Assembly: GCA_048550535.1 (NCBI GenBank)
Contig: JBLYYN010000086.1
Span: 1-44,219, forward strand
Reading direction: 5' to 3'
From: Gammaproteobacteria bacterium
Lineage (GTDB): Bacteria > Pseudomonadota > Gammaproteobacteria > SZUA-229
DNA: 44,219 bases
The position numbers and the translations under genes are program-made. Shown here piece by piece: positions 17,645-44,219 of the stretch. How positions within the stretch are numbered: position 1 is the stretch's first letter; every line of letters starts with the position of its first letter. The notes beneath the pieces were generated by a model. It worked only from the letters and a program-made list of their open reading frames with translations, made no database searches and was not told the DNA's origin.

Positions 17645-17761
17645 ATTGATCTCCCCGGTACTTCGTTGTTTCTATATTGTTATTTAATCAGAGAATCTTA
17701 AGTATGGGCCAGTAATCGAAAAAGGAAAGTGAATATGTGCTGTATTGAGCGATTATTCATA

Positions 17762-17919
17762 CCAGGAACTTCTGATTAAGTCTGGTTGTAGCAGGCTGCG
17801 ATGAGTGTTTAGATTGTTCACCAGGTGAGGCGGTAGTTATTCTTTTGCAACGAAATCGGGGGAAATCTGGACGTTTTTAGCCAGCATAAAGCAATCACGA
17901 ATGATCAGAGGTTCCCTGG
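17762..17919 (+). mobile_element. ~160 bp MITE, copy 1
   Basis: Terminal inverted repeats ccaggaacttctgat / atcagaggttccctgg; aligns along its full length with the reverse complement of 25610-25773. Confidence 0.8.
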
Positions 17920-20932: not shown

Positions 20933-21056
20933 AAAAGAAAACGCAAATGAACGCAAATAAATGTTAAATGTTTTAATTTGGGTGGAAATTATTAAATGAA
21001 ATTATTTTTATCGATTTATATTTGCGTTCATTTGCGTTGTTCGCGTTTTCTTTTTT
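20933..21056. repeat. Palindromic element with tandem AACGCRAAY-type units in its arms
   Basis: aaaagaaaacgcaaatgaacgcaaata ... tatttgcgttcatttgcgttgttcgcgttttctttt around an AT-rich spacer; second copy at 35567-35885 in the opposite orientation. Confidence 0.8.
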
Positions 21057-25609: not shown

Positions 25610-25773
25610 CCAAGGAAGCTCTGATCAAATCGTGATTGTTTTATGCTGGCTGAAAAGCGTCCAGATTTCCCCCGTAGTTCGTTGCAATAGAATAACTATT
25701 TCGCCTCACTTCGTGAAAAATCTAAACACTCATCGCAGCCTACTACAACCAGACTTAATCAGAAATCCCCTAA
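25610..25773 (-). mobile_element. ~160 bp MITE, copy 2
   Basis: Reverse complement of 17762-17919 (shared tctgattaagtctggttgtag, gctgcgatgagtgtttagatt, cgggggaaatctggacg, agccagcataaa); ends aggaagctctgat / atcagaaatcccct. Confidence 0.8.
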
Positions 25774-25846
25774 GTTAATACGAGCTCAGAGCAATTGTTC
25801 TTAATTATAGAGATTATTGCTCAGTGCTAAGCTCTTTTGAATAATT

Positions 25847-30079: not shown

Positions 30080-30416
30080 ATCAATGCTATTTGATTTGTA
30101 CTTTCTCGTAACATAATAACAAGTTAATCGCTCAGGCACATATTTAATGCCGAGGTCAGGCCTAAATTGTAGCTAATATTAATGGCAATTTCGATCTGAT
30201 CTTATAGCATTACTCTTTTACTCTAAAGAAAAAAAGAAAGACCTGGCCCTGGTCCAGTCATTGATGATTGGAGAAGTATAAGTCTGAGACTTGCTTATAT
30301 GGAGGCATTAAAATCAGAAAATATATGATATTGCTCTATTTTAAGGAGAAGGTCGTTAATGTTAATGATTCTCAGTTGATTTTTGGTGTTTTTGATTAGT
30401 GTAGTGATCATCAGGC

Positions 30417-30972
30417 AGAGGTTTCGCCCTTCTGGGCGAGTTCATTTCTTTACTCGTATAAAGAAACCGAACCAAAGAAATACGCCCCAACTCACAAGCC
30501 CTTCATAAAAGGCGATGAAGGGTGCCCTCGTCACCACATGATGAATGTGCCTGCTGCGCAACTCCTCGCAAACTACGCTCGTCAAACATGCTCGCAGAAA
30601 GCCTGCACTTTAATCATGCGCTCCTCGGCTTGATCAATGGGGAATTCGAAAAAAAAATCGGAAATCCAAAGCCTGTGCTTTTGAACATCCCCTTTGGAGT
30701 AAGCAGAGGAGGGAGTGATTTATGAGGGAGCTTTCTGCGAGAATGTTTGAGCGAATTATGCTTTTTATAATTCGTGAGTTTCGCAGCAGCCTCATAAATT
30801 GCGACTGACGAAGGCACCACTATGCGCTTTTTGCATAGTGGCTTGCTACCTGGGGCGGCATTTTCTTGGTTATCTTCTTTGTTGCCTACAGGGACGTAGG
30901 TAAGGAGCGAGAGCAGGATGCGGTAGCTTTGCTGGAGACAAAGAAGTAACTCGCCAGCGAGGCGAAACCTCT
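30417..30972. repeat. Long structured inverted element made of two diverged copies (30417-30650 on +, 30681-30972 on -)
   Basis: Perfect 12-bp outer IR agaggtttcgcc/ggcgaaacctct; ordered shared blocks ggcgagtt, aaagaa..aacca, cgcccca, caagcc, ggtgcc.tcgtca, ctgctgcg.aactc, tcaaacat.ctcgcagaaagc, ctcctc.gctt, gggga. Confidence 0.8.
30882..30928 (-). mobile_element. ~47 bp hairpin micro-element inserted in the right arm of the long inverted element
   Basis: Minus strand agctaccgcatcctgctctcgctccttacctacgtccctgtaggcaa; absent from the left copy; homologous to 35599-35612 + 35714-35763. Confidence 0.7.
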
Positions 30973-32841: not shown

Positions 32842-32915
32842 TTTGCCACAGAGGCACAAAGAACACAGAGGTTTTATATATATTAACTCTATGAGCTCTG
32901 TGCCTCTGTGGCAAA
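32842..32915. repeat. Palindromic element with tandem CACAGAG-type units in its arms
   Basis: tttgccacagaggcacaaagaacacagag ... ctctatgagctctgtgcctctgtggcaaa; outer 17 bp perfect; lies between convergent genes. Confidence 0.8.
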
Positions 32916-34362: not shown

Positions 34363-35550
34363 ATGTTTACTCCTTTTTCCATTGCGCGACTGCCCCGGAT
34401 CGAATTTGGCTCGGGCACCATAGCTAAACTGGGTGATACTTGTCTGCAATATGGCCGGCTCATATTACTGGTGACCGGGGGCCAGTCGTTCGAGCAGGCC
34501 TCATGGTCCGAGGCCATATTGCAGGATTTCAAACATCATGGCATCGACTGGCTCATGTTTAAGGTGCCGGGGGAGCCGTCTCCCCAGCTAGTCGACCAGG
34601 CCGTAGAGGCCTATGCTGATGAAGTCATTGATGTCGTGGTGGCGGTGGGCGGTGGCAGTGCCCTGGATGCGGCCAAGGCCATTGCCGGTTTACTCAGAGT
34701 CAGACGTTCGGTGATGGATTACCTGGAAGGGGTGGGGCCGGAATTAAGCTATGAGGGGCCTGCGCTGCCCTTTATTGCCGTTCCCACCACCGCCGGTACC
34801 GGCAGTGAAGCTACCAAAAATGCAGTGCTCAGCGTTCATGGCTCGGAAGGCTTTAAAAAATCCTTTCGTGATGACAAGCTGGTGGCGGAGTACGCCATAG
34901 TTGATCCGGATCTGCTGGCCAGCTGTCCGGCGTCGGTGATTGCCGCCAACGGTATGGATGCGCTCACCCAGTTACTGGAATCCTATGTGTCTACCCGCGC
35001 CAATGCCATGACCGATGCGCTGGCCATCAGCGGTCTGCGGGCCGTACGTGACGGCTTGTTAGTCATGTTTAACTCCGCGGGTCAGGATGTTGATGCCCGT
35101 GAGCGCATGGCTTATGGTTCGATGTTGTCGGGCATCTGTCTGGCACAAACCGGCCTGGGCTCGGTGCACGGCCTGGCTTCACCGCTGGGAGCTTTTTATC
35201 CCATTCCCCATGGGGTGGTATGTGGCACCCTGGTGGCTGAGGCGACCCGGGTCAATATCGAGACCATGAAACAACGCGAGCCGGATAATCCCCTGCTGGC
35301 CAAATATGCTCGACTGGGTGATGTGTTATGCAAGAAAAAACACCGGGATGCGGAAAAATCTTATCAGGTTCTGATTGAGCTGTTAACTGAGTGGACTGTC
35401 GAGCTCAAACTTGAGGGCTTATCGGCATATGGTTTGAGGGAAGAGGGCATAGCCCATGTGGTGGCCCATTGTCGTGGCAGCAGCATGAAGACCAATCCCA
35501 TCGTGCTCAGCGATGAGGAAATCGCCGGGATTATTCGGTCCCGGCTTTAA
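34363..35550 (+). CDS. Iron-containing alcohol dehydrogenase
   Basis: GGGSALDAAK, VPTTAGTGSEAT, DALTQLLE, VHGLA, HGVVCG. Confidence 0.92.
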   Translation: MFTPFSIARLPRIEFGSGTIAKLGDTCLQYGRLILLVTGGQSFEQASWSEAILQDFKHHGIDWLMFKVPGEPSPQLVDQAVEAYADEVIDVVVAVGGGSALDAAKAIAGLLRVRRSVMDYLEGVGPELSYEGPALPFIAVPTTAGTGSEATKNAVLSVHGSEGFKKSFRDDKLVAEYAIVDPDLLASCPASVIAANGMDALTQLLESYVSTRANAMTDALAISGLRAVRDGLLVMFNSAGQDVDARERMAYGSMLSGICLAQTGLGSVHGLASPLGAFYPIPHGVVCGTLVAEATRVNIETMKQREPDNPLLAKYARLGDVLCKKKHRDAEKSYQVLIELLTEWTVELKLEGLSAYGLREEGIAHVVAHCRGSSMKTNPIVLSDEEIAGIIRSRL

Positions 35551-35566
35551 TTGTGTGATTTATCAG

Positions 35567-35885
35567 ATTTAAAAGAAAACGCGAACAACGTAACTGAAAG
35601 CTTCCGCATCCTCGGTAACTGAGTCTTTCCGGGTTGTCCATGCCCTCACGAGACACTTGTTCATCCATGAACATCGTCCTGCGTTACTCTACCTCCTGCA
35701 TCCATGCAGTCGTGCTCGCGCGCCCTACCTGCGTACCCAAAGGGCATAAATCCATGCAGGCAACGCGAATACACGCAAAATAACTAATGATTTATAGGTT
35801 TATGTTTAAAATATCGAATATTTTGTTCACATAAGATGAACAAAATAAAAAAGCATTTGCGTTAATTTACGTTTTCTTTTTAAAT
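35567..35885. mobile_element. Nested composite repeat: palindromic host carrying four layered micro-insertions
   Basis: Host arms match 20933-21056; internal modules match 30882-30928 (reverse complement) and 44128-44206. Confidence 0.8.
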
Positions 35886-35893
35886 TTTACAAA

Positions 35894-36448
35894 TCATACA
35901 ATGGCCATCATGGCCAGTGAGCTGCCCAGTGCCGCACCCACCAGCACATCCGTGGGGTAATGCAGGCCCAGCACCACTCGTGACATGGCAACCAGCAGGG
36001 TAAATGGCACTAACACCAGGGCCAGTTCAGGGTAGCTGTTAATCGCTATCAGGCTGAAGCTGAAGGCATGCAGGGTATGGCCTGATGGAAAACTGTAATA
36101 ATCCAGTGCTTCGGTGCCCTGCACAATCGAGCTGTGCTGGATATAGGGGCGTTGACGAACCAGGGTGGTTTTCAGCAGTTTATAAACCGCGACGCCGATT
36201 AGCCCGGTCACCAGCATGTTGATGGAGGTTTCTATGGCTGACCAGCCATAGGCTACCGGCAGCAGTAGCATCAAAATATACCAGAACACGCCGTTACCTA
36301 AGCGGCTGATGAGGGAGAAAAATACTCGTATCAGCTCAATGTCCGAATATTGGTTAAGGGACTGACACAGTCCTAATTCAAGCTTGTCCATCCGCTGAAA
36401 CAGTCGTAGTTTTGGCGTTCTGCCGATTGCATTGTTTAGATTGAGCAT
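35894..36448 (-). CDS. PAP2-family phosphatase
   Basis: K...RQRP, SFPSGHT, SRVVLGLHYPTDV; start may be 36448 (overlapping the GT gene) or 36391. Confidence 0.9.
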   Translation of the reverse strand: MLNLNNAIGRTPKLRLFQRMDKLELGLCQSLNQYSDIELIRVFFSLISRLGNGVFWYILMLLLPVAYGWSAIETSINMLVTGLIGVAVYKLLKTTLVRQRPYIQHSSIVQGTEALDYYSFPSGHTLHAFSFSLIAINSYPELALVLVPFTLLVAMSRVVLGLHYPTDVLVGAALGSSLAMMAIV

Positions 36449-40636: not shown

Positions 40637-41938
40637 ATGAGTGAAATGGTTGAAGTGAAAGTTCCCGACATCGGTGATTTCGATGCAGTGGAAATCATAG
40701 AAGTTCTGGTATCGCCGGGCGATACCGTCAATGTCGAAGACTCCTTGATTACCCTGGAGTCTGACAAGGCCAGCATGGAAATCCCATCCAGTCATTCCGG
40801 TGTGGTTAAACAAGTGAAGGCCAAGGTGGGCGATATGATTACCGAAGGGGCTGTCATATTGGTTCTGGAAGCGGGCGATACTGCCGCTGTGGTGGAAGAA
40901 AAACCAGCAGAGCCAGCCCCGGTGGTTGTCGAAGCTGAGCCAGCAAAAGCAGCAGAGCCGGCCACGCCAGCACCCGTTGCATCGGCCAGCAGGCCTTCAC
41001 CTACGGCACAGATCGATGAAGTGGCGTTTACTAAGGCTCATGCGTCACCGGCCGTGCGCAAGTTTGCCCGTGAACTGGGCGTTGACCTGGGTAGCGTGAC
41101 CGGTTCCGGTCGCAACGGTCGTATCCTCAAAGAGAATGTGCAAAGCTTTGTGAAACAGGCTTTGAGTCAGCCAGTGGCAGCCGCTTCTGGAGGTGCTGCA
41201 CTGGGTATAGAGCCGATGCCAGAGATCGATTTCAGCCTGTTTGGAGACATCGAAAGCCATCCCTTAACCAAGATCAACAAGCTCACCGGCAAGTTCCTGC
41301 ATCGTAACTGGGTGAGCATTCCCCATGTGACTCAATTTGAAGAAGCGGATATTACCGATCTGGAAGCCTTCCGCAAACAGTCGAATTTGGAATATGCCGA
41401 TCAGGGCGTCAAGTTCACCATGCTGTCATTCATCATGAAAGCCATGGCGGTGGCATTGAAGCGTTACCCACGTTTCAATTCCTCACTGGATGTCAGTGGC
41501 GAAAACCTGATTATGAAGAAATACTGCCACATTGGTGTTGCTGTAGACACGCCCGATGGTCTGGTGGTGCCTGTGGTGCGTAATGTGGATCAGAAAACTC
41601 TGGTGGATATTTCACGGGAACTGAAAGAGATTTCGGTTAAGGCGCGTGAGAAAAAACTCAAGCCTTCCGATATGCAGGGCGGTTGTATTTCTATATCCAG
41701 CCTGGGCGGCATCGGCGGTACCAAGTTCACGCCCATTGTGAATGCGCCCGAAGTCGCCATTCTTGGTGTGTCCAGAGCCGATATGAAACCGGTGTGGAAT
41801 GGTAAGGAGTTCGAACCACGCCTGGTGTGCCCGCTGTCTCTGTCCTATGACCACCGGGTGATTGATGGGGCGGCCGCAGCCAGGTTTGCCAGATACCTCA
41901 GCCATTTATTGGCCGATGCCCGTCGTCTGCTGTTGTAG
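40637..41938 (+). CDS. aceF: Dihydrolipoyllysine-residue acetyltransferase E2 with one lipoyl domain
   Basis: ESDKASMEIP lipoyl site, HASPAVRKFARE E3-binding domain, DHRVIDG catalytic motif. Confidence 0.97.
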   Translation: MSEMVEVKVPDIGDFDAVEIIEVLVSPGDTVNVEDSLITLESDKASMEIPSSHSGVVKQVKAKVGDMITEGAVILVLEAGDTAAVVEEKPAEPAPVVVEAEPAKAAEPATPAPVASASRPSPTAQIDEVAFTKAHASPAVRKFARELGVDLGSVTGSGRNGRILKENVQSFVKQALSQPVAAASGGAALGIEPMPEIDFSLFGDIESHPLTKINKLTGKFLHRNWVSIPHVTQFEEADITDLEAFRKQSNLEYADQGVKFTMLSFIMKAMAVALKRYPRFNSSLDVSGENLIMKKYCHIGVAVDTPDGLVVPVVRNVDQKTLVDISRELKEISVKAREKKLKPSDMQGGCISISSLGGIGGTKFTPIVNAPEVAILGVSRADMKPVWNGKEFEPRLVCPLSLSYDHRVIDGAAAARFARYLSHLLADARRLLL

Positions 41939-42026: not shown

Positions 42027-43796
42027 ATGATGAGTACAATTGAAATCAAGGTTCCCGACATTGGTGATTTTGCGGAAGTCGAAATCATCGAGGTGCTGGT
42101 GTCCGCCGGCGATAGCATTGAGGTGGAAGACTCCCTGATTACGGTGGAGTCGGACAAGGCGAGTATGGAAATCCCATCACCCGAGGCGGGTAAAGTGGTT
42201 TCTGTGCAGGTAAATGTGGGTGATAAGGTCGCCGAAGGTAGTGTGATTCTGACCCTGGACACAGTACAAGCTGCAGCAACGGAAACGCCGGCAGCCATGG
42301 CAGATACTCCTGTGGCAGCAGCGGCCGAGCCAGAGCCTGTGGTTACACAACAGACACCACAGGCCGCCAGTTTCGATGGCAAGGCCGACATCAATGCCGA
42401 GCTGGTAGTGCTGGGTTCAGGCCCGGGAGGTTATACCGCTGCGTTCCGTGCCGCGGATCTGGGTAAAAAAGTGCTATTGATCGAAAAAGATCCTTATCTG
42501 GGTGGGGTTTGCTTGAATGTGGGCTGTATCCCCTCCAAGGCCCTGTTGCATGTGGCCGAAGTGGTGAATGAGGCCCGTGAATTTTCCGAGCTGGGTGTGG
42601 AATTCAAGGAGCCGAAAATTGATAACAACAAACTTCGAGCCCACAAAAACAAGGTTGTCGGTAAACTGACCGGCGGCCTTAAGCAACTGGCCAAGCAACG
42701 TAAAGTGCAAGTGGTTCAGGGATACGGTCGTTTCAGCTCCAGCCATAGTATCGAGCTGGAAGCCGACGATGGCAGCAAGAAGACGGTTCAGTTTGAAAAC
42801 TGCATCATTGCCGCGGGTTCATCGGTGACCAAGCTGCCTTTCGTGCCCTGGGACGATGAGCGAGTATGGGATTCCACCGATGCTCTTGAACTGCATAACA
42901 TTCCGAAGCGCTTACTGGTCGTGGGCGGCGGTATCATTGGTCTGGAAATGGCCACGGTTTACCATGCTCTGGGCGCTCAGGTGACGGTGGTTGAACTAAG
43001 TCCAGGATTGATTCCCGGCGCCGATCGAGACCTGATTCGTCCGTTTGAGAAAATGCTGAAGAAACGTTACGAAAATGTTTTCGTGAACACCAAAGTGAGC
43101 GAAATTACCCCAGCCAAGAATGGCATAGTGTGTAAGTTTGAAGGCAAGGGTGCACCAGAACAGGATTCCTTCGACAACGTGCTGGTGGCCATTGGTCGTT
43201 CACCTAACGGTAAACTGATAGATGCCGATAAAGCCGGTGTGCTGGTGAATGAACAGGGCTTTATCCCGGTGGATAAACAGCAGAAAACCAACATCGATCA
43301 TATTTACGCCATCGGTGATGTGGTGGGCCAACCCATGCTGGCTCACAAAGCTACCCATGAAGCCAAGGTGGCAGCAGAAGTGATTGCGGGTATGAAGAGT
43401 TATTTCGATGCTCGCACTATTCCATCGGTGGCCTACACAGATCCTGAAGTGGCCTGGTGTGGCGTAACTGAAGATCAGCTCAAGGCTGATGGCGTGGCCT
43501 ATGAAAAAGGAGTATTTCCCTGGGCGGCCAGTGGTCGCGCCTTATCCGTGGGAGCCGAGGCGGGCATGACCAAGGTATTATTCGATAAGGAAAGCCATCG
43601 TATTCTGGGTGCAGGTATTTTAGGTAAGAATGCCGGTGAGTTGATTGCCGAAGCGGTACTGGCGGTTGAGATGGGCGCAGAGCCGGATGATATCGGTTTG
43701 TCTATTCATCCCCATCCAACTCTGTCGGAAACACTGAATTTTGCTACCGAGGTGATGGAGGGTGTTTGCACCGACATCTATGCACCGAAAAAATAG
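42027..43796 (+). CDS. lpdA: Dihydrolipoyl dehydrogenase E3 with N-terminal lipoyl domain
   Basis: N-terminal ESDKASMEIP; GSGPGGY, GGVCLNVGCIPSK, GGGIIGLE, IHPHPTLSE. Confidence 0.97.
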   Translation: MMSTIEIKVPDIGDFAEVEIIEVLVSAGDSIEVEDSLITVESDKASMEIPSPEAGKVVSVQVNVGDKVAEGSVILTLDTVQAAATETPAAMADTPVAAAAEPEPVVTQQTPQAASFDGKADINAELVVLGSGPGGYTAAFRAADLGKKVLLIEKDPYLGGVCLNVGCIPSKALLHVAEVVNEAREFSELGVEFKEPKIDNNKLRAHKNKVVGKLTGGLKQLAKQRKVQVVQGYGRFSSSHSIELEADDGSKKTVQFENCIIAAGSSVTKLPFVPWDDERVWDSTDALELHNIPKRLLVVGGGIIGLEMATVYHALGAQVTVVELSPGLIPGADRDLIRPFEKMLKKRYENVFVNTKVSEITPAKNGIVCKFEGKGAPEQDSFDNVLVAIGRSPNGKLIDADKAGVLVNEQGFIPVDKQQKTNIDHIYAIGDVVGQPMLAHKATHEAKVAAEVIAGMKSYFDARTIPSVAYTDPEVAWCGVTEDQLKADGVAYEKGVFPWAASGRALSVGAEAGMTKVLFDKESHRILGAGILGKNAGELIAEAVLAVEMGAEPDDIGLSIHPHPTLSETLNFATEVMEGVCTDIYAPKK

Positions 43797-43977: not shown

Positions 43978-44219
43978 GTCATTCCCGCATGATTGTAGCG
44001 TTAATCTAGTGGTTCAAAGACACTGTATCCTAGGGAACCCCTGAATAATTCATAATATGTCATCCCGACTGAAATAGAGGGATCTTAAATGCTTGATATT
44101 TACGCAACTATTAAAATTAAGATTTCTCGACAATTGAGTCTTTTCGGGCTATCCATGCCCTCACGAGACACTTGTTCTTCCATGAACATCGTCCAGGCAT
44201 TGTTCTCGGTCTCCGTTCC
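43978..44219 (+). mobile_element. Second nested repeat stack, cut by the window end
   Basis: Successive left ends: gtcattcccgc (43978), tagggaacccctgaataa (44031), tgtcatcccgac..gggatct..agatttct (44058-44127), cgacaatt (44128), a 60-nt block 56/60 identical to 35620-35679 (44135-44194), cggtctccgttcc (44207). Confidence 0.7.

Follow-up and report, generated by a model that had tools for sequence, protein, structure and literature searches.

The spacer at positions 35551-35893 (343 nt) of a 44,219-nt gammaproteobacterial contig (JBLYYN010000086.1 of assembly GCA_048550535.1), the whole of which is called the window below, was found to lie between two convergent genes and to hold an entire nest of five short repeated elements, designated L1 to L5. 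The nest had been noticed in an original prediction made from the DNA letters alone. The observation was confirmed, and the borders read there lay within 1-2 nt of those re-read against aligned paralogs. All five layers were multi-copy families in the genome, each with copies having and lacking the inner insert, and the earlier view of them as distinct families, with copies elsewhere and sites both occupied and vacant, was supported genome-wide. We proposed that the nest was built by successive insertions of the short, non-coding elements, in a single-strand-type reaction that would be site-specific for TCC-containing hairpin loops and performed by an enzyme supplied in trans, and the probability of this explanation was put at about one half. 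It was built on the observed layers, filled and empty sites, target motifs, covarying hairpins and burst of L5. The interpretation offered with the original prediction was partly supported.

The window is contig C86 of a 3.6-Mb genome (3,608,430 bases, 354 contigs, 87.5% complete), labelled G000. G001 denotes a genome of the same genus (sister species) and G007 an L3-rich relative. The pieces of the nest and their nearest copies in the window were as follows.

35571-35880, no strand assigned: L1, outer palindromic host element like a MITE (miniature inverted-repeat transposable element), with 11-nt inverted ends AAAAGAAAACG / CGTTTTCTTTT
35599-35612, plus strand: left piece of L2, ending in ...CATCCT, the L3 site
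35613-35619, plus strand: left piece of L3, the 5' arm of hairpin H1
35620-35676, plus strand: L4, a 57-nt two-hairpin unit in the H1 loop of L3
35677-35713, plus strand: right piece of L3, with the rest of the H1 loop, the H1 3' arm, a CTAC linker, hairpin H2 (TCCA loop) and the TCGT end
35714-35734, plus strand: middle piece of L2, up to the 5' arm of the L2 hairpin
35735-35751, plus strand: L5, a 17-nt unit in the L2 hairpin loop
35752-35763, plus strand: right piece of L2, with the 3' arm of the L2 hairpin and the L2 end
20933-21056, no strand assigned: uninterrupted L1 copy
30882-30928, minus strand: L2 copy empty of both L3 and L5, within a hairpin loop close to the end of the ~560-nt repeat 30414-30972
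44135-44191, plus strand: second L4 copy, in an H1 hairpin with another stem
44064-44091, minus strand: empty hairpin of the host family that carries L3 after ...CCCT on contig C157

A BLAST search of positions 35567-35885 against the genome returned 116 matches at 85 loci, and the breakpoints piled up at the layer borders. Eighteen complete L1 copies of 120-432 nt with common 11-nt inverted ends were found; 11 of them carried none of the four L2-L5 marker motifs scanned, and the arms were composed of repeated ACGCRAAT-like words. The relative at 20933-21056, to which attention had been drawn earlier, had both ends in common with the L1 of the nest, with arms of 31 nt (90% complementary) and 45 nt (76%).

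The L2 family comprised 43 copies (47 nhmmer hits), and both insertion sites could be scored in 35 of them. Both sites were empty in 18 copies, only the L3 site was filled in 12, only the L5 site in 3, and both were filled in 2, one of these being the L2 of the window. Freed from its inserts, the latter agreed with 30882-30928, read as the reverse complement, over 40 of 47 nt, with a G-C to A-T double change in the stem, exactly as had been claimed. The picture given at first required a correction, in that L2 with L3 inside was itself multi-copy (at least 8 copies with a 47-48-nt L3). At least three outer contexts of L2 were recorded, namely L1, the ~560-nt repeat (in a hairpin loop, e.g. 30414-30972) and arrays, and L2 also occurred in tandem. 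The ~560-nt repeat had inverted ends, at least seven copies at 66-88% identity and the empty L2 in a hairpin loop near one end; copies were located on contigs C8, C181, C337, C135, C272 and C66, and no Rfam match was obtained for it.

The usual form of L3 was a 47-nt unit of two hairpins, H1 and H2 (62 nhmmer hits at E up to 10). Of the 22 full copies, 16 had an empty paralog, defined by 14+14-nt flanks with at most 3 mismatches, and the distinct host hairpins numbered at least 8. The hosts were small hairpins whose loop ended in the CT before L3. This dinucleotide, whose frequency in the genome was 5.4%, stood directly before the element in 38 of the 39 copies that aligned at the 5' end, and the commonest four bases at that place were TCCT (15 copies). 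Two sub-variants of L3 that differed in the first stem filled the same L2 site in two different outer contexts. The end was TCGT in 30 of 46 copies, and the same word ended L4, as had been predicted. Pairing in the two hairpins amounted to 96.9% over 22 distinct copies, and 6 of the 13 pairs had changed on both sides; this covariation was not reached in any of 1000 column shuffles, and the pairing fell to 16-46% when the partner was slid by 1-2 columns. The TCC loops were the most conserved part of the hairpins, and the stems covaried. An additional insert family of ~55 nt was observed in the TCCA loop of L3-type hairpins (G000:C169:2224-2275, G000:C300:2258 and L005:4230-4290), hence there are more than five nesting families.

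For L4, 27 copies were found, 24 of them directly 3' of a CTCG[GA][CT]A[AC][CT]-type (H1) arm, and its stems also showed double-sided changes. The independent copy that had been reported in the window was recovered at 44126-44194 with 90% identity over 69 nt. The order of modules was variable: H1, with or without L4, was followed by different modules.

The L5 pattern gave 72 matches in the genome and none when it was read backwards. L5 occupied 63 loci, with arrays of one (53 loci), two (8), three (1) or eight (1) units, and an empty paralog was available for 38 of the 63. L5 was preceded by T in 51 of the 63 loci. The ten most frequent four-base words after it together made up 58 loci, and in 38 of these the word began with CC (CCAT alone accounted for 27). 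Since T stands before and CC after the unit, L5 splits the TCCA loops common to the L2, L3 and L4 hairpins. Compared with the 72 matches here, 4 were found in G001, both of the two inspected lying in hairpin hosts, and no real match occurred in 29 other relatives; two other genomes had one match each, and both looked like chance on inspection. L5 thus underwent a lineage-specific burst, ~18-fold within one genus. The eight-unit array was located on contig C338 (C338:63-1000), where the right inverted flank of a gene resembling those of REP-associated tyrosine transposases (RAYT; REP, repetitive extragenic palindrome) formed a hairpin, and an L3-like unit with the eight tandem L5 units followed CT in its loop; this was the only contact of the elements with a RAYT-like gene. 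Solo paralogs of this flank with the same L3-like unit were present at C39:1528-1633 and C274:4087-4176. Three paralogous composites of a RAYT-end hairpin and an L3-like unit carried eight, two and one L5 units, respectively.

L2-L5 lacked terminal inverted repeats and, apart from a 1-nt ambiguity at the joints, had not duplicated their targets, as the original prediction had it. The size of ~50 bp proposed there held for L2-L4, and did not hold for L5 (17 nt) or L1 (120-430 nt, with inverted ends). In our reading of the sequences, L3, L4 and L5 may be placed in one register in which each starts with T and is followed by T. After removal of the element, the junction fell in a predicted hairpin loop in 14 of 22 cases for L3 and 31 of 62 for L5, compared with 564 of 2000 for positions chosen at random and 101 of 420 for shuffled flanks; the odds ratios against random positions were 4.5 and 2.5, respectively. 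The suggested preference for other stem-loops was borne out by these counts.

The nest could also be a chimera of reads joined through short repeats in a metagenome-assembled genome, which we regard as scarcely credible. The fragmented assembly of 354 contigs speaks for it, as do the Logan contigs of the likely source run, which stop within the nest at 35666 and 35742. No independent contig spanned the whole nest. However, every module is shorter than typical reads, and the same partial nests were met on many contigs. Independent assembly support came from a 165-nt contig of another study's run (X2), which covered 35702-35851 with one difference and took in the L3 end, L2, L5 and the L1 interior. 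In contigs of four runs compared with the locus, the joints all matched paralogs, e.g. a 57-nt skip with CGC between. As a practical point, such repeats break metagenome assemblies.

We proposed the following order of events. The terminator-like palindromic L1 would have taken up L2, which would in turn have accepted the 47-nt two-hairpin L3 in a small TCCT loop, directly behind its CT; the loop of the first L3 hairpin would have received L4, and the TCCA loop of the L2 hairpin would have received the 17-nt L5 between T and CC. The elements are probably non-autonomous and may spread by sequence- and structure-specific cutting and joining of folded single-stranded DNA in which only the loops are exposed. 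Such a reaction would leave neither inverted ends nor a target duplication. The joints would take the form N^T, the three inner elements starting with T and T following them. At its 3' end L5 would rebuild its own target, T^CC, and tandem L5 arrays would thereby be explained. Strand transfer on folded single strands was favored because one fixed sequence with a fixed joint was found in many unrelated loops with no inverted ends or duplication. Folded as single-stranded DNA, the spacer had a z of -4.4.

The same modules could have been shuffled, multiplied and lost with no dedicated transposition, as in bacterial interspersed mosaic elements (BIMEs), through slipped replication, template switches at the hairpins and gene conversion among the numerous paralogs, so that occupied and vacant forms would be products of recombination. 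The many module orders and arrays, the tandem L2 copies and the H1 arms that occur with or without L4 before varied modules are in keeping with such a mosaic. So is the finding that L4 takes the place of 3 nt and is not a clean insertion, as well as the failure to link an enzyme to the elements. Homology would be ample, given that short repeats made up 78,757 of 3,608,430 bases (2.2%) in 641 regions, each with at least three other short copies. On the other hand, the identical joint after CT recurred not only in 8 or more unrelated host hairpins but also in other genera and on viral contigs, and within one genus L5 went from 4 matches to 72 as a fixed 17-nt unit with a fixed joint. The entry of one fixed sequence into unrelated loops is not explained by slippage. 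Mosaic shuffling was judged a serious, though rather unlikely, explanation.

Under the proposed single-strand insertion, the enzyme would be encoded outside the window, and its likeliest, weakly supported class would be that of HUH-type single-strand nucleases or transposases. The absence of a mobilizing enzyme from the window, claimed earlier, agrees with the search for Y1 (HUH) proteins, as none of the four genes matched in the genome lay on the contig of the window. These genes were RAYT-like, were located on contigs C338, C155, C113 and C255, and encoded proteins that scored 67-77 bits, all just below the NCBIfam cut-off of 80 for the REP-associated tyrosine transposase. By eye, their length and motifs look like those of subclasses 2.1 and 2.3 of Quentin et al., for which the table in that paper lists no REP (PMC6006769). 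They are the only candidates of the HUH kind found in the genome, but nothing ties them to the elements. HUH transposition of the IS200/IS605 or RAYT type had been brought to mind in the original prediction; the genome does encode the four proteins, but their flanks, described below, lend the idea no support. No IS200/IS605-type TnpA was found in the genome, where the Y1 genes were all RAYT-like and had other ends. The 87.5%-complete genome yielded no domain of TnpB, reverse transcriptase or Transposase_31, nor of IS110 (PF01548), which was matched in control genomes. The HUH class was favored by elimination, since Y1 proteins were present when IS110, TnpB and reverse transcriptase were not found. 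A search for Y2/IS91 proteins carried no information, its controls being silent. Open reading frames (ORFs) within 400 nt of 112 repeat loci contained no recurrent protein family, the clusters obtained being ORFs that ran through the repeats. A 113-aa GIY-YIG ORF at G000:C159:4100-4510 was rejected as a candidate; it was bracketed by inverted ATTCCGGC...GCCGGAAT hairpins of a family other than L1-L5.

The REP hairpin is bound by TnpA_REP of E. coli, which also cleaves single strands at C^T, its specificity being low, and joins strands, as reported in the relevant part of PMC3333891, and this joining could, its authors suggest, diversify BIMEs (PMC3333891; PMC8266576). The HUH type was kept as the most likely class because this is the nearest documented chemistry. 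The left joint of L3 may be read as CC^T, which is compatible with C^T, when the right joints would be G^T or A^T.

Several results weigh against insertion by such an enzyme. The statistical tests of loop junctions overstate the effect, because the composites were themselves amplified and the copies are not independent. L4 replaces 3 nt of the short L3 form (TGC or CGC) and so did not insert cleanly; it may move only in company with the H1 hairpin. Alleles with and without an insert at one locus were not found in the contigs of the four runs, and metagenome contigs scanned by exact pattern gave no match to the L5 site with its unique flanks. No clear orientation bias against GC skew was detected, unlike in IS608-type elements: the counts against local GC skew, obtained on short contigs where nested copies are not independent, were 19 and 14 for L3, 10 and 9 for L4, 18 and 13 for L2, and 20 and 34 for L5 (p = 0.08). 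All four Y1 genes were bracketed by their own GGGTCAG-type inverted repeats, not by L2-L5, and the same kind of inverted flanks was seen by eye at 13 Y1 loci of relatives. Among 54 metagenomic loci with relatives of the C338 protein, an L3-like unit was found at 2, more than 1.5 kb from the gene, and L5 at none. The 97%-complete G007 had 19 L3 matches and no Y1 match. Several genomes had these Y1 genes and no L3; within the family, Y1 genes occurred in 8 of 9 L3-bearing and 7 of 9 L3-free genomes. The Y1 proteins were 43-69% identical across genera, compared with 90-100% for L3. No enzyme is linked to the elements, and a tie to the Y1 genes found is unproven and partly contradicted. About a dozen solo GGGTCAG-type flanks were observed in the genome, some with L5 inside.

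Members of the IS110 family target REP hairpins and lack inverted ends. REPs are also described as targets of several insertion sequences (PMC3333891, introduction). A double-strand site-specific recombinase, either a guide-RNA-bearing enzyme of the IS110 type or one of the tyrosine or serine class that reads the loop motif, would suit a short and fixed target. Little weight was given to it: no IS110 transposase domain was found in the 87.5%-complete genome, the target dinucleotide does not recur at the element ends (the target of L3 is CT, but its last two bases are GT), and a 17-nt element could hardly hold the sites that such enzymes need. Two other possibilities were considered and dropped, namely integron attC sites (the stems were only loosely like core sites and there were no cassettes) and topoisomerase IB sites (the target was YCT, not CCCTT).

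The layers differed in their distribution. The closest named relatives of the genome were uncultured metagenome-derived Gammaproteobacteria, the best with 83% protein identity for a neighboring gene, and some relatives at ~69% protein identity for such a gene bear the label Thiotrichaceae. Of 18 genomes of the same family, 10 had the second-hairpin part of L3 (35677-35716) at 90-100% identity, and one weak match was obtained in 12 genomes of other families of the class. In eight other genomes L3 stood after CT inside a local hairpin at 7 of the 8 loci inspected, the eighth being an array. Four IMG/VR viral contigs (L115-L118) carried the exact second hairpin in five copies located in intergenic hairpins, all five being full L3 units after CT, and such contigs are a possible route of L3 transfer between genera. 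Three runs from other studies, with seawater or marine sediment as their label, gave summed contig depths for L3 in the thousands. Full L4 and L2 were found only in this genome and in G001. As L3 is shared across genera, L2 is limited to the genus and L5 matches number 72 against 4, the sequences indicate that L3 is old and widespread and entered a younger host, L2, and that L5 multiplied recently.

The hairpins might instead be kept for a function in the cell, as terminators, protectors of mRNA 3' ends or protein-binding sites, their copying being secondary. The conservation of the TCC loops while the stems covaried agrees with this, and the 90-100% conservation of L3 across genera would fit a highly conserved binding partner. 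From 83 to 90% of the copies were intergenic, mostly at gene 3' ends. The opposite-strand loops of L2-L4 contained GGA (CAGGANG, CAUGGAUG; e.g. 35655-35672, 35695-35709 and 35728-35761) and presumably resemble sites bound by CsrA; a csrA gene was present in the genome. The L1 ends were terminator-like, and the relative with 83% protein identity had, by eye, an L1-like element with a different interior at the same spot downstream of the dehydrogenase gene. Nevertheless, no orientation with respect to neighboring genes was preferred (about 21 L3 copies in one sense and 20 in the other) and no Rfam family was matched; the only hit in 35400-36000, below the threshold as everywhere in the window, was to an unrelated Bacillus small RNA (E 0.11). 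The nesting and the L5 burst would be left unexplained, and retention for function was considered improbable as the main cause. The genes on either side of the spacer were:

34363-35550, plus strand: Fe-alcohol dehydrogenase gene, left neighbor of the spacer
35894-36448, minus strand: PAP2 phosphatase gene, right neighbor of the spacer

The first of these had its own terminator-like hairpin (35524-35545), which overlapped the gene end and was followed by a T-rich tail, and thus the nest is not needed to end its transcript. Promoters in the spacer did not exceed the shuffle expectation. The csrA gene was located at G000:C16:7611-7766, and an L3 copy was observed ~315 nt downstream of it.

The closest known kinds of repeats are REP/BIME systems, mini-elements derived from IS200/IS605 and the small dispersed repeats (SDR) of cyanobacteria. 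Like REPs, BIMEs and REPINs with their RAYT, the elements studied here are short extragenic high-copy hairpins in mosaics and tandem arrays, with covarying stems, a conserved tetranucleotide beside the hairpin foot and no inverted ends or duplication, in a genome with RAYT-like genes. REPs are imperfect palindromes of 20-40 nt, and copy number and clustering were also of the REP kind (62, 47 and 27 nhmmer hits for L3, L2 and L4, respectively, 63 L5 loci, and common arrays). As defined in PMC6006769, a REP has GTAG or GTGG 0-2 nt 5' of the hairpin foot. Here, by contrast, no GTAG was found 5' of a hairpin: H2 of L3 was preceded by CTAC and 3 nt, so that GTAG lies 3' of the hairpin on the opposite strand, and L4, L5 and L2 had neither word. 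The RAYT-like genes were not flanked by L2-L5 (no REPtron), and the units were singly oriented, not in inverted pairs, and nested in loops up to four deep. The elements were not filed as REPs because of the missing 5' GTAG and of the lack of a RAYT gene flanked by them.

With IS200/IS605 elements and the derived palindrome-associated transposable elements (PATEs) they share subterminal hairpins, the absence of inverted ends and duplication, insertion 3' of a fixed short word and the single-strand chemistry proposed here. They differ in being far smaller (17-57 nt), with no clear replication-strand bias, no full-length parent with the same ends, and no TnpA or TnpB of that type found in the genome. 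Between the end of L3 and its left hairpin lie 1-2 nt, which leaves no room for a guide word of the sort described for IS608 in the relevant parts of PMC3333891 and PMC8266576. The likeness to MITEs derived from DDE transposons was confined to L1 (inverted ends, 120-430 nt, multi-copy); L2-L5 had no inverted ends or duplication, no duplication was established for L1, and no parent insertion sequence was found. The MITEs of Thiomargarita were unrelated, judging by their description in part of PMC4853749.

Small dispersed repeats of Nostocaceae cyanobacteria were reportedly described by Elhai et al. in 2008 (Genome Res 18:1484). These are ~20-nt units, dispersed and tandem, that are thought to be mobile and to use a fixed short site; they are discussed in PMC2884548 and PMC5861425. 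Going by these accounts, the elements studied here behave most like SDR, the comparison being one of descriptions and not of sequences: both comprise very small units with variable tandem number, a fixed insertion site and no known enzyme. L5 in particular has the SDR features, being 17 nt long, forming arrays of 1-8 units and having a fixed joint T^CC within other repeats. The present elements belong to another phylum (in Gammaproteobacteria), and their targets are the TCC loops of hairpins. According to PMC5861425, none of the HIP1-rich cyanobacterial genomes treated there had an SDR-like repeat, those of Nostocaceae excepted. The L3 and L5 core words were printed in no paper of the literature searched.

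Only for a few REP families is it known how very short bacterial repeats spread. In the present genome, occupied and vacant sites that occur naturally define to the nucleotide where elements of 17, 47 and 57 nt end and what they target. The nearly unchanged L3 across genera and on viral contigs and the ~18-fold rise of L5 make a tractable system for finding the enzyme, and the elements allow a test of whether RAYT-like proteins that have no known REP act on such hairpins. It is doubtful, but conceivable, that they form a family-wide self-nesting system of marine-sediment Gammaproteobacteria with the smallest mobile DNAs yet seen in Proteobacteria (17-57 nt), which would home to the TCC loops of any hairpin, their own hairpins and those at RAYT-like gene ends among them, and would be moved either by an unrecognized single-strand DNA enzyme or by the 'REP-less' RAYT subclasses 2.1/2.3. 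If that were true, these subclasses, which are orphan enzymes, would gain a first substrate. Likewise, the arrays might act on CsrA-type regulation, because each insertion would add GGA-loop hairpins on the other strand.

Other short repeats were observed in the window. Positions 32842-32915 formed a 74-nt near-perfect palindrome of the TTTGCCACAGAG family (~24 other copies), and hairpins of this family elsewhere held L5 and L3 in their loops. The segments 17746-17900 and 25630-25788 were an inverted pair, 7.8 kb apart, of another short repeat family with 32-34 other copies; their arms matched over 87 nt at 83%, and further arms at 84-95%. A 139-nt direct repeat (40650-40788 and 42040-42178, 80% identity) was located downstream of a pyruvate dehydrogenase E1 gene and may represent repeated domains of the next gene.

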